This document shows, in pieces, positions 1,255 to 38,160 of a stretch of DNA of 39,999 nucleotides (positions are counted from its first letter, which is position 1; each line of letters starts with the position of its first letter). The stretch covers positions 1 to 39,999 of the forward strand of contig JAASSY010000003.1 of assembly GCA_021767645.1 (NCBI GenBank), read 5' to 3'. Both the position numbers and the translations under genes were made by a program. The notes under the pieces are model-generated. The model was not told where the DNA came from. It worked only from the letters and a program-made list of their open reading frames with translations, and searched no databases. The stretch is from Candidatus Parcubacteria bacterium (GTDB lineage Bacteria > Patescibacteriota > Minisyncoccia > Phycocordibacterales > UBA918).

Positions 1255-2364
1255 CTACTCAACACCTGCGTCTTGCAGTACGTTTTGTAAGAACGGCACA
1301 ATCAGGTCACGAAACAGCTGTGAACGTAGTGCGACATCACCACGCACGTAGCTATCTAAGTCACGACCACTCTCAGCAGTAATGGTACGATCAATATATG
1401 ATAACGTGAGTGCGCGCAGGCTGCCGCTGCCAAACATATCGGCATTACCTAAGGTACTAATCATACCTAGTGCTCGACCCGCAGGATCAGTTACTGGACT
1501 GCCAGAAACTCCTTGCTCGCCCAGCGGTATGCCAGAAAGACTAAATACATCGGCAACGTTGGCACCGAACGTCATCATTTCGGTGACACGAGTATCAGCT
1601 GATTCTAAGGTGAGTGGTGCGGTAATACTATCGTTGGCAAACACAGTCGCTGCTGGGTAACCAGTCACGCGTACCGGACGACCAATAGCATCAATCGATA
1701 GCAGTTCAGTGTATATATCAAGATACGGGAAACGGGCTGGGGCTGGTTCGTTGTTTAGGCCGTTGCTGATGTAGAGGAGCGCAAAATCACGTTCACCCGT
1801 GCCTTTCGGTTGTGTTTGGGCCAATTCATCGGCGTGTTCGATAATCCAAGCAATCGAAATGTACAGTAGTTCGACTTCGTAGGTTGGTTCTGCTGGATTA
1901 CCAGTCCGTACAATACAATTCCCGTTACCACGAACTTCTTCCAGGATGAGTCCTTGGGCAACATGTGCATTAGTAAGGATGACACCTTGTTCATGGATGA
2001 TAAAACCCGTACCAGTCATGGCGTGGCGCATGTCTCCTGTTTCGTAGGTGCAGTAGAGATTGACGACTGCGTCAGCTGGGTTGGCGGCAGGATCGGTCTG
2101 TTGGGGCTGCGGGACTCCATCAATCACCGTGGCAGTTTGCGGTGGGGCTGTATCGATGAGGATTTGCGGTAGATCACGCTGGTAGCGCGATTCTACGTAC
2201 TGAAGTTGCGGCGCAGTGCCAGCGGTCGGTGCTTCCGTACTCGCTACCTGCGGAGCTGTATCAGCCTCAGGAAGCAGGGATTCAATCTGTGCTGCTAGTT
2301 GGCCAGTGACAGCCAAGTAGGCTTCTAGGATGGCAACCAGGGTGTTTGTAAGTACATTGAGCAT
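1255..2364 (-). CDS. Trypsin-like (S1) serine protease
   Basis: Catalytic triad motifs LTNAHVA, RDFALL and GVSGSPV, with GTGFII upstream; no PDZ domain. Confidence 0.85.
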   Translation of the reverse strand: MLNVLTNTLVAILEAYLAVTGQLAAQIESLLPEADTAPQVASTEAPTAGTAPQLQYVESRYQRDLPQILIDTAPPQTATVIDGVPQPQQTDPAANPADAVVNLYCTYETGDMRHAMTGTGFIIHEQGVILTNAHVAQGLILEEVRGNGNCIVRTGNPAEPTYEVELLYISIAWIIEHADELAQTQPKGTGERDFALLYISNGLNNEPAPARFPYLDIYTELLSIDAIGRPVRVTGYPAATVFANDSITAPLTLESADTRVTEMMTFGANVADVFSLSGIPLGEQGVSGSPVTDPAGRALGMISTLGNADMFGSGSLRALTLSYIDRTITAESGRDLDSYVRGDVALRSQLFRDLIVPFLQNVLQDAGVE

Positions 2365-2469
2365 GTGTAGCCTAGTATAGCAGGCAGTGTATAGGGACAG
2401 GTTCTGCTGGCTGGAAAAAGCTCGTAGTAAGTGGTAAACTGGTGCACGCTACAGGGAAGTCACGTAATC

Positions 2470-2540
2470 GCGGGTGTAGTTTAGTGGTAAAACATCTGCC
2501 TTCCAAGCAGAGGTCGGGGGTTCGATTCCTCTCACCCGCA
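2470..2540 (+). tRNA. tRNA-Gly (anticodon TCC), CCA not encoded
   Basis: Acceptor GCGGGTG/CACCCGC, D-arm with TAGTGGTAA, anticodon arm TCTGC-CTTCCAA-GCAGA, T-loop GTTCGATTC. Confidence 0.97.
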
Positions 2541-2780
2541 CACATATGTTTCCGAACAAGCCCTTGGGGGCTTTTTCGTTTGAAACATAGTGTACGGGTG
2601 AAGTACGTGCCCAATGGCACGTACGTGAGGAATCGAAAGACGGAGTCGGTATACAAGACGAGCGGTCGCCGTTTTTTTAGGGTTTGTGTATGAGGTCATT
2701 ACCGCCAAACCTAGGCCGTTTGGTGGGTTTCGTATCACAAACAGAAAAGCCCCCGGCTGAGGGGCTCTCCTGTTTGTGAT
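2541..2780 (+). other. Highly structured tRNA trailer containing an inverted copy of the tRNA 3' end plus further hairpins
   Basis: 2590-2601 and 2627-2637 are reverse complements of 2532-2543 and 2521-2531; hairpins at 2553-2578, 2603-2624 and 2734-2780. Confidence 0.7.
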
Positions 2781-2891
2781 GGGAAATAGCGTGAGAATAC
2801 TACTCTTTGTATTTCCACATAGCGTAATACCTCCGCTACAGGTAAATTATAGCATACCTTTCACTCCGGGTTGGGTTGCTGTGTATAACTA

Positions 2892-2918
2892 AAGGCCGCG
2901 AGCTCTGCTCGCGGCCTT
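2892..2918 (-). terminator. Terminator of the HU gene
   Basis: AAGGCCGCGAGC-TCT-GCTCGCGGCCTT hairpin just after the HU stop. Confidence 0.8.
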
Positions 2919-2935
2919 ATAAGCGTGTGGAGAAC

Positions 2936-3208
2936 CTATTTTACAGCGTCCTTCAGAGCTTTAGCAGCTCGGAATTTCGGTACGCGCATAGCTGGTACTT
3001 CAATTGCTTCACCCGTGCGAGGGTTGCGGGCAGTGCGAGCGTTACGCATTTTTGCCGAGAAGATACCGAGGCCAGCGATCGATACCTCATCGCCACTTTT
3101 GAGTGTCGATACAAGATTGTCAACGAAGACGTCCATCATACGCTCAGCGTCAGCTTTGGTAACACCGAGTTCTTCGTGGATCTTGTTGATGATGTCAGCT
3201 TTGTTCAT
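2936..3208 (-). CDS. hup: DNA-binding protein HU
   Basis: 90 aa; MNKADII start, GLGIF, ARNPRTGE arm, VPKFRA..LKDAV. Confidence 0.95.
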   Translation of the reverse strand: MNKADIINKIHEELGVTKADAERMMDVFVDNLVSTLKSGDEVSIAGLGIFSAKMRNARTARNPRTGEAIEVPAMRVPKFRAAKALKDAVK

Positions 3209-3373
3209 AGATTCTGAATTTTAGTTTGGGTAAAGTGTCAGTGTAATGACACGTGCCGTAAAAATGGCTTAAAAACATTATATATGAGGAGTTCGGGTCT
3301 GCAACGTCTTGTCGGGCAGTTATTCTATGGTCTAGTTTGAGTGGCTTGGTACGGTATGCTACGATGCCTCGGT

Positions 3374-3949
3374 ATGCAAACTGAAGTGAAAATTGGAGTG
3401 ATGGGAGCTAAGGGAAGTTTCTCAGAAAAAGCCGCCGAAGAATACATTAAAGAACAGAGTATATCGAGCGCTGCGATTGTGCCGTTAGTGAGTGCGGAGT
3501 CAGTTCTTGCCTCACTCGCCACAGGAGATATTGATTTGGGTATTTTTCCAATTGAGAACAGCAACGGGGGAATTGTACTTGAGGCTGTGCACGCTATGGC
3601 AGCCCACACGTTCAACATCAAGCAATTGTTTGAGATCGATGTGCACCACATGTTACTAGTCCAGCCCGGAGTGACGTCATCACACATCACTGCTATTTCA
3701 TCGCACGACCAAGCCCTCAAGCAATGTCGGATGTATCTCAAACGGATTTGGCCTGATGCTGATATTGAGCCGTACGCTGACACGGCTAAAGCGGCCGAAG
3801 ACTTGAGCATAGGGACACTGCCAGATACTACCGCAGTGATTGCACCGCGCCGCTGTGCTGAGATGTATGGTTTGGAGATACTCGAGGAGTCCATTCAAGA
3901 CTTGAAGTTTAACTACACGACATTTGTAGTGGCAACTGCTCAGAAGTAA
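3374..3949 (+). CDS. Prephenate dehydratase-like protein (catalytic domain only, no ACT domain)
   Basis: G.KGSFSE.AA, PIENSNGG.V, SH.QAL.QC, DTAKAA, IQD..NYTTF; start placed at ATG 3374, after TACGAT. Confidence 0.85.
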   Translation: MQTEVKIGVMGAKGSFSEKAAEEYIKEQSISSAAIVPLVSAESVLASLATGDIDLGIFPIENSNGGIVLEAVHAMAAHTFNIKQLFEIDVHHMLLVQPGVTSSHITAISSHDQALKQCRMYLKRIWPDADIEPYADTAKAAEDLSIGTLPDTTAVIAPRRCAEMYGLEILEESIQDLKFNYTTFVVATAQK

Positions 3950-37885: not shown

Positions 37886-38160
37886 GGGTCTTTAGAGAAA
37901 GTGACCACTTTCGGCTCTTAGATGAGACGGAGCGATGTTTTCTGCTCGTTACTAGAGCAGAAAACCAGCGAGTCGGGTGAGACAGCCTGAGAGGCTGTTG
38001 CAAGAGGTTGCCTGCGATTTTGCAGGATGAAAAATAGCAACAACCTGTACTGCTTATGTAAGAAGAACAAGTACTTAGTAAAATGCCGCGCCAGCGGCTA
38101 TTTTACTTAGAAACCAGTGGGTCAAGGGTCTGGAAAGCAGTGGAGTTTGGTTTCTGTGAA
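37879..38160 (+). other. Hairpin-dense non-coding element after fusA
   Basis: Successive stems CGTCTAAGGGTC/GGCTCTTAGATG, GTTTTCTGCTC/GAGCAGAAAAC, ACAGCCT/AGGCTGT, CCTGC/GCAGG, AGTAAAAT-GCCGC/GCGGC-ATTTTACT. Confidence 0.6.

Follow-up and report, generated by a model that had tools for sequence, protein, structure and literature searches.

Why should a tRNA gene carry an inverted copy of its own 3' end in its trailer? This question is raised by a stretch of 39,999 nucleotides of Candidatus Parcubacteria bacterium (the window; positions 1 to 39,999 of contig JAASSY010000003.1, assembly GCA_021767645.1), in which the gene for tRNA-Gly(UCC) is followed by an antisense copy of its last 23 nt. In the current study this copy was identified as a truncated member of a large family of structured repeats anchored at the tails of tRNA and transfer-messenger RNA (tmRNA) genes, and the antisense arm as the 5' strand of the closing helix of that family; both identifications are secure. 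On balance, the locus is probably the relic of a tRNA-anchored, protein-less structured repeat element, whose family occurs throughout the order at tRNA and tmRNA 3' ends and, less often, at other terminators.

The inverted tail copy behind tRNA-Gly(UCC)

The tRNA-Gly(UCC) gene (2470..2541, plus strand, without encoded CCA) is the only tRNA gene called by ARAGORN in the window, and its cloverleaf (matched at 2470-2540) scores 73.2 bits with Rfam RF00005 (gathering threshold 29). The segment that is copied in antisense, here called X (2521..2543), comprises the T loop, the 3' strands of the T stem and the acceptor stem, the discriminator and 2-3 trailer bases. It is followed on the same strand by a linker hairpin (2544..2589), delimited by a consensus scan and folding, with an outer stem ATATGTTTC/GAAACATA and an inner stem at 2558-2573. 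The inner stem and the T run behind it (TTTCGTTTGA) match the pattern of an intrinsic terminator, which is therefore regarded as putative.

The antisense arm, X', begins directly behind the linker, and a repeat search resolved it into two halves on the plus strand. The first half, X'a (2590..2601, GTGTACGGGTGA), is antisense to the acceptor 3' strand, the discriminator and the trailer bases (2532-2543), with 11 of 12 positions paired and one A.C mismatch. The second, X'b (2627..2637, GAGGAATCGAA), pairs without a mismatch with the T-stem 3' strand and T loop (2521-2531, 11 of 11), and corresponds to the 5' strand of helix P1 in intact units. The halves are separated by a splitting hairpin, hpB (2602..2626), which has a perfect stem of 9 bp (2603-2611/2616-2624), the four-nucleotide loop CAAT, an unpaired A on its 5' side and GT on its 3' side. 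The branch position of hpB and its flanks recur in relatives and at other tRNA genes. Overall, 22 of the 23 tail positions are complementary to the split arm.

The reverse complement of the last 25 nt of the tRNA gave a gapped local score of 29 against the 200 nt downstream, compared with a maximum of 22.8 in 50 shuffles, which makes chance an unlikely source of the inverted copy. The arm is a true complement of the tail and not a copy of the 5' half of the tRNA, as it carries an A where the T stem has a G opposite U, and also covers the T loop and the trailer bases. Folding of the 231 nt from 2470 to 2700 gave a minimum free energy (MFE) of -97.1 kcal/mol (z = -6.1; equalled by none of 200 shuffles), and in this predicted structure the 3' half of the tRNA pairs with the trailer and the cloverleaf is not formed. 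An earlier reading made from the sequence alone (the sequence-only reading) had reported the positions and letters of both halves, their 11/11 and 11/12 complementarity, the 9-bp hairpin, the inner stems, and a fold-back incompatible with the cloverleaf. All of these observations were confirmed, with the addition that part of the hairpin it described is also terminator-like.

Recurrence at other tRNA genes and in relatives

According to the sequence-only reading, a genuine arm should recur behind other tRNA genes and change together with them, and both were observed. The genome of origin (G000) is a metagenome-assembled genome (MAG) of 605 kb in 43 contigs (93.7% complete), of which the window is contig C9. 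For each of its 28 ARAGORN tRNA calls, the reverse complement of the last 25 nt was scored against the 200 nt downstream and against 50 shuffles of its own. The inverted score exceeded all own shuffles at 10 of the 28 genes. The best inverted copies were those of Ser-GGA and Ala-UGC (21/22 each), Asp (18/19) and Val-UAC (15/15), and the arms of Gly-GCC and Arg-UCG were split by hairpins of 25 and 28 nt, as in the window copy. Arm length ranged from 7 to 23 nt, with the shortest arms (7-8 nt) at Lys and Ala-GGC. A direct copy of the tail (score at least 28) was found at 8 of the 28 genes; every direct copy lay within about 450 nt of its tRNA, and there were no islands. By inspection of the sequences, a unit of the same kind stands behind at least 16 of the 28 genes.

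In relatives, the tRNA-Gly(UCC) locus keeps its synteny with the RNase Y gene. Comparison of RNase Y identified these relatives as MAGs that bear the labels Kaiserbacteria, Paceibacteria or Parcubacteria, in agreement with the group named in the sequence-only reading. A full unit was present at 12 of 17 orthologous loci; the other five had the tRNA and a terminator only. Ten of the 12 full units have a type 1 core and two a type 2 core (see below), and nine have split and three unsplit arms. The arm halves X'a and X'b track the sequence of the tRNA in each ortholog (CCTC/GAGG, CTTC/GAAG, CCCC/GGGG, TCGCCC/..GCGA, TATCCC/GGGATA), and this tracking extends to 2-3 bases past the discriminator. 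Four deviations were seen among the orthologous arms, three of the G.U type and one A.C, the latter being that of the window.

Structure of intact units

Intact units are about 100-200 nt long, non-coding and without an open reading frame (ORF). The tRNA is followed by a linker hairpin, in most cases terminator-like and bearing A and T tracts, and then by X', the core, X and the original trailer. X' is the Watson-Crick antisense of the tRNA tail, running from the trailer bases back to T54 or the T loop, and is often split near the boundary of acceptor and T stem by a hairpin that is preceded by an unpaired A and followed by (C/U)GU. X repeats the tail in direct orientation, starting at about G53-C56 and ending with the discriminator; it pairs with X' and closes the core. 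The sequence-only reading had noted that integrative elements leave direct, and not inverted, repeats of tRNA 3' ends. This is correct but incomplete here, since the family has both kinds of copy and the window copy has lost the direct one.

Two core types were distinguished, both of them three-way junctions of the same topology. In type 2, P1 (X'b/X) is followed by GAAA, by P2 and P3, by (G)GUAC(U), and by P4 with a UGUAA loop, the 3' strand of P4 being continuous with X. In a model-fitted alignment of nine type-2 copies, 97% of the cells were paired and 21 of 26 pairs were changed on both sides; none of 500 shuffles was as good, and slid controls were 29-47% paired. Type 1 reads ..TCGAA, A, GNC, GGAG, [P3], CGA, GN'C, GGGGU and [P4], followed by X, and its topology was determined by single folds and a strict pattern, because within the variable hairpins the quality of MAFFT alignment A1 was insufficient for a covariance model. 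P2 of this type covaries (GAC/GTC, GCC/GGC, GGC/GCC and GTC/GAC), with three exceptions seen among about 150 listed matches. In some subtypes of P3, the GGTATACAAG type among them, the sequence itself is conserved across many genera. Over 41 copies from 29 genomes, G.U exceeded A.C by 30 to 5, so it is the tRNA-sense strand that folds, either as RNA or as single-stranded DNA.

The window copy as a truncated unit

The core of the window copy (2638..2667, plus strand; identified by nhmmer and homology) consists of the junction A, the P2 5' strand GAC, GGAG, the 5' half of a P3 of the GGTATACAAG type, and GTC. Together with the antisense arm ending in ..TCGAA, the features of type 1 are thus recognizable at 2590-2664 up to the start of P3, and the pair GAC/GTC agrees with the covariation rule for P2. 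The 3' half of P3, the GGGGU junction, P4 and the closing X have no counterpart. In nhmmer searches, 2628-2665 matched the unit on contig C4 of the same genome and was common to the C20 unit too, while similarity to the ortholog in relative G013 stopped at 2653, the sequence beyond being unrelated. A second copy of the 19-nt tail was not found in the 40-kb window at up to three mismatches; 2666-2800 showed no significant direct similarity to 2506-2590, and no remnant of X was detected. Because homology ends at 2653-2665 and neither X nor a remnant of it is present, the window copy is a truncated member of the family. With the core broken after about 30 nt and X gone, the X' of the window faces only the tRNA. 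A function of this copy beyond that of the terminator-like hairpin is not expected.

In a soil-metagenome contig with an identical tRNA, 2543-2624 are replaced by a different linker/arm of 73 nt, which is followed by X'b and a complete type-1 core. The small-share matches from sequencing runs X2-X4 covered mainly the tRNA and short parts of the element. No RNA run was among the 18 runs listed for the stretch, a result that bears on its transcription in neither direction.

The place of the missing part is taken by replacement sequence (2668..2790, assigned to neither strand) that could not be aligned to intact units. It contains hairpins at 2702-2726 and 2731-2785, the latter terminator-like on both strands, and alignments of the window to the second terminator of orthologs did not rise above shuffles. 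The loop-side sequence of the 2731-2785 hairpin resembles the first terminator in inverted orientation. The tRNA, the relic and both hairpins lie in about 960 nt of non-coding sequence (2365-3324), which is unusually long for a genome of 0.6 Mb.

Distribution of the family

Of 121 genomes of the order, 73 (72 of 119 genera) had type-2 cores detected by model R1, the largest number in one genome being 33; in 150 other genomes of the phylum the model gave one weak partial match. The strict type-1 signature was found in 64 of the 121 genomes, and the reversed control pattern had no matches. Among the 30 best type-2 matches in other genomes, 28 had a tRNA gene upstream on the same strand (25 within 100 nt); 12 amino-acid classes were represented, and X matched the tail over at least 17 nt in 18 of the 30. 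The closed genome G071 (742,714 bp) has 13 type-2 copies behind 12 different genes, one of which is the tmRNA gene. Its 37 tRNA and tmRNA genes include 15 with an inverted copy and 16 with a direct copy, nine of them with both, so that 22 of 37 have either. At the tmRNA gene of this genome (locus L158, G071:C1:85538-86092), the companion unit has an antisense arm and a weaker direct copy of the tRNA-like 3' end.

In the genome of origin R1 had 18 matches, four of which lie behind protein genes. One of these four, at window position 38,002, belongs to a second locus in the window (37930..38075, plus strand), where a type-1 core is directly followed by a type-2 core (R1 match 38002-38066, E = 1e-8). 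The double core stands 3' of the stop codon of a protein gene and 5' of a terminator-like hairpin, with no tRNA nearby, indicating that the cores are not strictly tied to tRNA genes. At C18:8444-8670 of the same genome, a duplicated tRNA-Ile tail is accompanied by a core whose strand is opposite to that of the tRNA. The 88-nt 'tRNA-Gly(ccc)' called there by ARAGORN is an artefact made up of the companion unit and a 25/25 direct copy of the tRNA-Ile(UAU) tail.

Insertion-like layout and turnover

In genome G041 (locus L040), the linker of the element follows directly after the discriminator of the tRNA and again after that of the first X, and CCA is found only after the last X. This layout matches a Campbell-type insertion by recombination within X. 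Identical units stand in tandem pairs, 140-180 nt apart, in many genomes. Modular exchange is suggested in G071, where units behind tRNA-Pro and tRNA-Gly are identical at 50 of 50 positions of P2-P3, as against 21 of 34 in P1, P4 and the flanks.

On the RNase Y tree, filled and empty tRNA-Gly(UCC) loci interleave: the empty locus of G020 is sister to the filled one of G010 (support 100/99), and the empty loci of G014 and G019 are sister to the filled loci of G006 and G013. The closest pair of species, G001 and G018, have different linkers and type-1 versus type-2 cores. The 5' modules also group against the tree. That of G018 is 80-85% identical to those of G006, G012 and G013 and 71% identical to that of G001, and that of G011 is 76-78% identical to those of G007 and G010, compared with 42-44% to its clade mates G003 and G004. 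The interleaving of filled and empty loci, the core swaps and the 5' modules point, on the basis of one marker gene, to rapid gain, loss and replacement of units.

Comparison with known systems

The family is apparently undescribed in Rfam and in the literature searched. Rfam returned only the tRNA and chance microRNA-type rows for window positions 1800-3400 (E <= 10), and only tRNAs and chance rows for thirteen loci with intact units (E <= 1). Neither core matched any Rfam family, nor did the linker or the arm; the models covered include those for hammerhead, twister, pistol, hatchet, HDV-like and YrlA RNAs and for group I and II introns. A hammerhead reading of the junction was rejected, as by inspection the order of GAAA, helix and junction excludes the CUGANGA strand and Rfam was silent. 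A viral origin found no support in IMG/VR, where one variant of a 19-base type-2 motif had no matches. Full-text literature searches found no description of tRNA-linked antisense and sense copies or of these cores; supplementary lists of motif clusters could hold the family. The sections of PMC12045711 covered here describe TIGR-Tas arrays, which are unrelated and have no tRNA link, and those of bioRxiv 10.64898/2026.10.21.760802 do not describe a tRNA-tail family.

Elements that use tyrosine integrases are bounded by direct repeats from the T loop to the 3' end of a tRNA gene and also use the tmRNA gene (PMC9897764, in the part covered here, citing Williams 2002 and Reiter 1989); in the same part, integration fragments are of kb scale only. 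Like such prophages, islands and integrative and conjugative elements, the units have a direct tail repeat from the T loop, occur at tmRNA genes, and rebuild the tRNA with element-side sequence and a terminator of their own, the displaced tail (with CCA in L040) standing at the far end. Unlike them, they are 100-200 nt long, have no integrase or ORF, carry an antisense copy of the target and covarying cores, and are found at most tRNAs of one genome.

Miniature inverted-repeat transposable elements (MITEs) and the REP/BIME/REPIN and RPE repeats are short, non-coding, multi-copy, hairpin-rich sequences of intergenic regions. Part of this background on small structured repeats is given in the portion of PMC3184786 covered here. 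The units share all of these properties, and also the frequent position next to terminators and the genome-specific subfamilies. However, their arms match the neighboring tRNA in antisense and sense instead of forming fixed terminal repeats, and no RAYT/Y1, IS110 or TnpB partner was found.

In the bridge RNA of IS110 elements, guide halves flank a stem, and group IIC introns sit behind terminator hairpins. The units resemble the bridge RNA and the exon- and intron-binding sites (EBS/IBS) of group II introns in having a segment complementary to the flanking target, here split by a hairpin, and resemble group IIC introns in lying just behind a terminator hairpin. They differ in that no recombinase or reverse transcriptase is associated with them, the complementarity extends up to 23 nt and is masked by the unit's own sense copy, and Rfam gives no intron or bridge-type match.

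Integron attC sites and the attP hairpin of the CTX phage are folded single-strand recombination sites. In comparison with these, the units similarly have a variable sequence with a conserved structure, a folded strand that restores the target in duplex form, bulged bases, variable terminal structures and strand asymmetry (G.T 30 versus A.C 5). They lack an integron integrase context, the genome has a single tyrosine recombinase, and each target is a different tRNA.

In E. coli, 3'ETS-leuZ is a small RNA derived from a tRNA trailer. Plant dicistronic tRNA-snoRNA genes are released by RNase Z (cited in PMC12045711, in the part covered here). The units, known from sequence alone, resemble both in being structured, RNA-like and directly 3' of a tRNA on the same strand. 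In contrast to the units, neither 3'ETS-leuZ nor the tRNA-snoRNA genes have antisense and sense copies of the tail or form multi-copy families.

Enzymes and processing of tRNA 3' ends

The genome of origin has one tyrosine recombinase (PF00589 match at C41:17886-18407), which lies inside no unit. In the copies examined, no integrase was found within or beside a unit. A direct repeat bounding the element, of the attL/attR kind, is absent from the window copy and present in intact members of the family. A link to reverse transcriptases, as expected for a SINE-, retron- or retrozyme-like repeat, was rejected, since RVT_1 (PF00078) showed no association with type-2 units. Directly after a type-2 core of the same genome (C29:2126-2470) lies a 152-aa frame with a sub-threshold match to the IS110 recombinase. 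Its N-terminus (MGIDFGTKK) resembles, we presume, RuvX/YqgF, so the IS110 match probably stems from a shared RuvC-like fold.

Encoded CCA is absent from 24 of the 28 tRNA calls in the genome of origin, most of which read N73-C-A. RNase P RNA (92.8 bits, slightly below gathering), a CCA-adding-type enzyme and RNase III are present. The only PolyA_pol/CCA-adding-type gene (C41:9269-9652) belongs to an unusually long frame of 623 aa, and lies about 200 nt from tRNA-Arg(UCG), which bears a split-arm type-2 unit. No RNase Z exceeded the cut-off in this genome, nor did any in the samples of 121 genomes from the order and 151 from the phylum; about 18 of the 151 have a plausible short form. A connection between the units and RNase Z was dropped, because its lack extends across the phylum while the elements are restricted to the order, and so does not explain them.

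Origin of the units

The sequence-only reading had offered, as one of two possibilities, that the arm belongs to a small non-autonomous element matching its target site. This came close to the data, in that a shared linker and core flank the arm and a direct copy of the tail forms the end of intact units. If the units are tRNA-anchored repeat elements, recombination within X between a tRNA gene and a unit of the form X-linker-X'-core would amount to a Campbell-type insertion, replacing the tail of the tRNA and bringing a new terminator. Loss and duplication could then occur by recombination or slippage between X repeats. Lineages of units would keep to one tRNA type and, by way of the conserved tRNA gene, pass between related genomes, and P2-P3 modules may be swapped between units of one genome. 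Selection acting on the closing helix or templated correction inside the hairpin, or the two together, could keep X' complementary.

A more far-reaching proposal, put forward tentatively and with less confidence than the relic reading, is that the units form a new class of protein-less elements. One strand, RNA or single-stranded DNA, would fold into a rod that mimics the last third of a tRNA or tmRNA as a duplex, with two side hairpins and a conserved three-way junction, and this mimicry or guide would be used to insert at, or act on, tRNA-like 3' ends. The units might then be site-specific mobile elements that customize themselves without a dedicated recombinase, or guide RNAs, one per tRNA, that direct an enzyme to the tail.

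Several points weigh against a relic of a mobile element. No enzyme linked to the units was found. In the genome of origin there were no matches to RVT_1, to the TnpB domain PF07282 or to the Y1 (HUH) transposase PF01797, the enzyme type of REP/REPIN repeats with RAYT and of palindromic elements derived from IS200/IS605, and the only match to the IS110 (DEDD, RuvC-like) recombinase PF01548 reached 19.9 bits against a cut-off of 29, in the 152-aa frame mentioned above. RVT_1 occurs in 33 of 73 genomes with type-2 units and in 16 of 48 without, so that 40 of the 73 have none. The turnover is seen on a tree of one protein, and the tandem pairs are possibly mis-assembled in short-read MAGs. The pairing counts are favored by the fact that alignments A3 and A4 had been fitted to the model. 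The conservation of P3 subtypes across genera hints at a cellular function as much as at a selfish element. A terminator-like hairpin precedes X', which makes transcription of the unit uncertain. The window copy retains its 22/23 complementarity despite the loss of its partner X, which fits recent decay and, equally, selection for pairing with the tRNA. Finally, X', the P4 5' strand and X fit each tRNA while the linker and P2-P3 are shared, and templated correction and lineage fidelity are proposals offered to explain this.

Among the alternatives, the one that survives best, and which we nevertheless consider unlikely, is that the units are resident, non-mobile small structured RNAs, companions of tRNAs made by read-through. 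They would have a cellular role, for example in the handling of tRNA and tmRNA 3' ends, with the rod of X' and X as a closing stem and the window copy as a pseudogene. The strong covariation, the G.U bias of the sense strand, the occurrence in most sampled genera of the order, the P3 subtypes and the failure to find a mobility enzyme are all consistent with such a role, as is the combination of missing CCA (24 of 28 genes) with no RNase Z above the cut-off in this genome or the order. However, filled and empty loci interleave among close relatives, and whole units are replaced between sister species. Decayed and truncated copies exist, the linker upstream is terminator-like, some copies lie behind protein genes and one on the opposite strand, and the shortage of RNase Z (none of 151 phylum genomes over the cut-off) is not specific to the order to which the elements are restricted.

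It is quite improbable that the inverted copy is a mutational by-product, with neither an element nor a function behind it. Template switching at a terminator hairpin (quasi-palindrome extension) can copy a tail in inverted orientation, and would yield an arm such as that observed: a perfect Watson-Crick complement with A opposite U where the 5' strand of the tRNA has G.U, continuing from the linker hairpin through the trailer bases and varying in length from 7 to 23 nt. The process leaves the conserved cores, the hairpin with conserved flanks, the direct copy, and the subfamilies with shared linkers and cores unaccounted for. Template switching is thus at odds with the structure of the family, and survives only as a possible way of keeping X' matched.

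The other possibility raised by the sequence-only reading, a cis-antisense switch, appears slightly more doubtful still. The arm in the trailer would invade the acceptor and T arms in read-through precursors and so control folding, maturation or decay of tRNA-Gly. The MFE structure of 2470-2700, the complementarity retained without the usual partner X, and the G.U-compatible nature of three of the four deviations among orthologous arms agree with this. Intact units, however, supply the arm with a partner of its own downstream, a predicted terminator precedes the arm, and five of 17 relatives have no arm at the same tRNA. The single mismatch of the window is A.C and not G.U, arms may be as short as 7-8 nt (Lys and Ala-GGC), and cores are also found behind protein genes and, in one case, on the opposite strand. 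A switch is conceivable for read-through transcripts of the window copy alone, but nothing in the family requires it, and a dedicated tRNA-folding switch is not supported.

There is very little likelihood that the locus is the scar of a classical tyrosine-integrase element, a prophage or island integrated in the T loop and later deleted down to its att-proximal ends. The direct repeats from T loop to 3' end and the use of tmRNA are a textbook footprint of such elements, as far as the sections covered here extend. Against this stand the uniform size of 100-200 nt, the covarying helices, the antisense arm and the shared cores at most tRNAs of a genome, and no examined copy contains or adjoins an integrase.

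An assembly fold-back, which the sequence-only reading had allowed for, is conceivable in a 43-contig MAG, as chimeric reads can create palindromes, and can be practically dismissed. The whole of 2300-2900 is covered, with 0 differences and 0 gaps, by an independent Logan contig from run X1 (1864 nt), which excludes an assembler-specific fold-back (X1 is probably the source sample, hence the same reads). In addition, 12 relatives with assemblies of their own and a closed genome show the same architecture.

Implications

As the window copy is a broken relic, its own message is modest. In practice, units of this kind yield false tRNA calls and are likely break points of assemblies. If the relic of a tRNA-anchored repeat element is the correct reading, it raises the question of how a unit without an enzyme keeps a 20-nt match to a dozen targets, and whether a folded strand that mimics the duplex of a tRNA gene recombines or guides something. 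It also draws attention to how tRNA 3' ends are finished without encoded CCA and without a recognizable RNase Z. Streamlined genomes of 0.6-1 Mb would then hold tens of copies of a structured element absent from the databases and papers searched, each copy matched in antisense and sense to its own tRNA or tmRNA.

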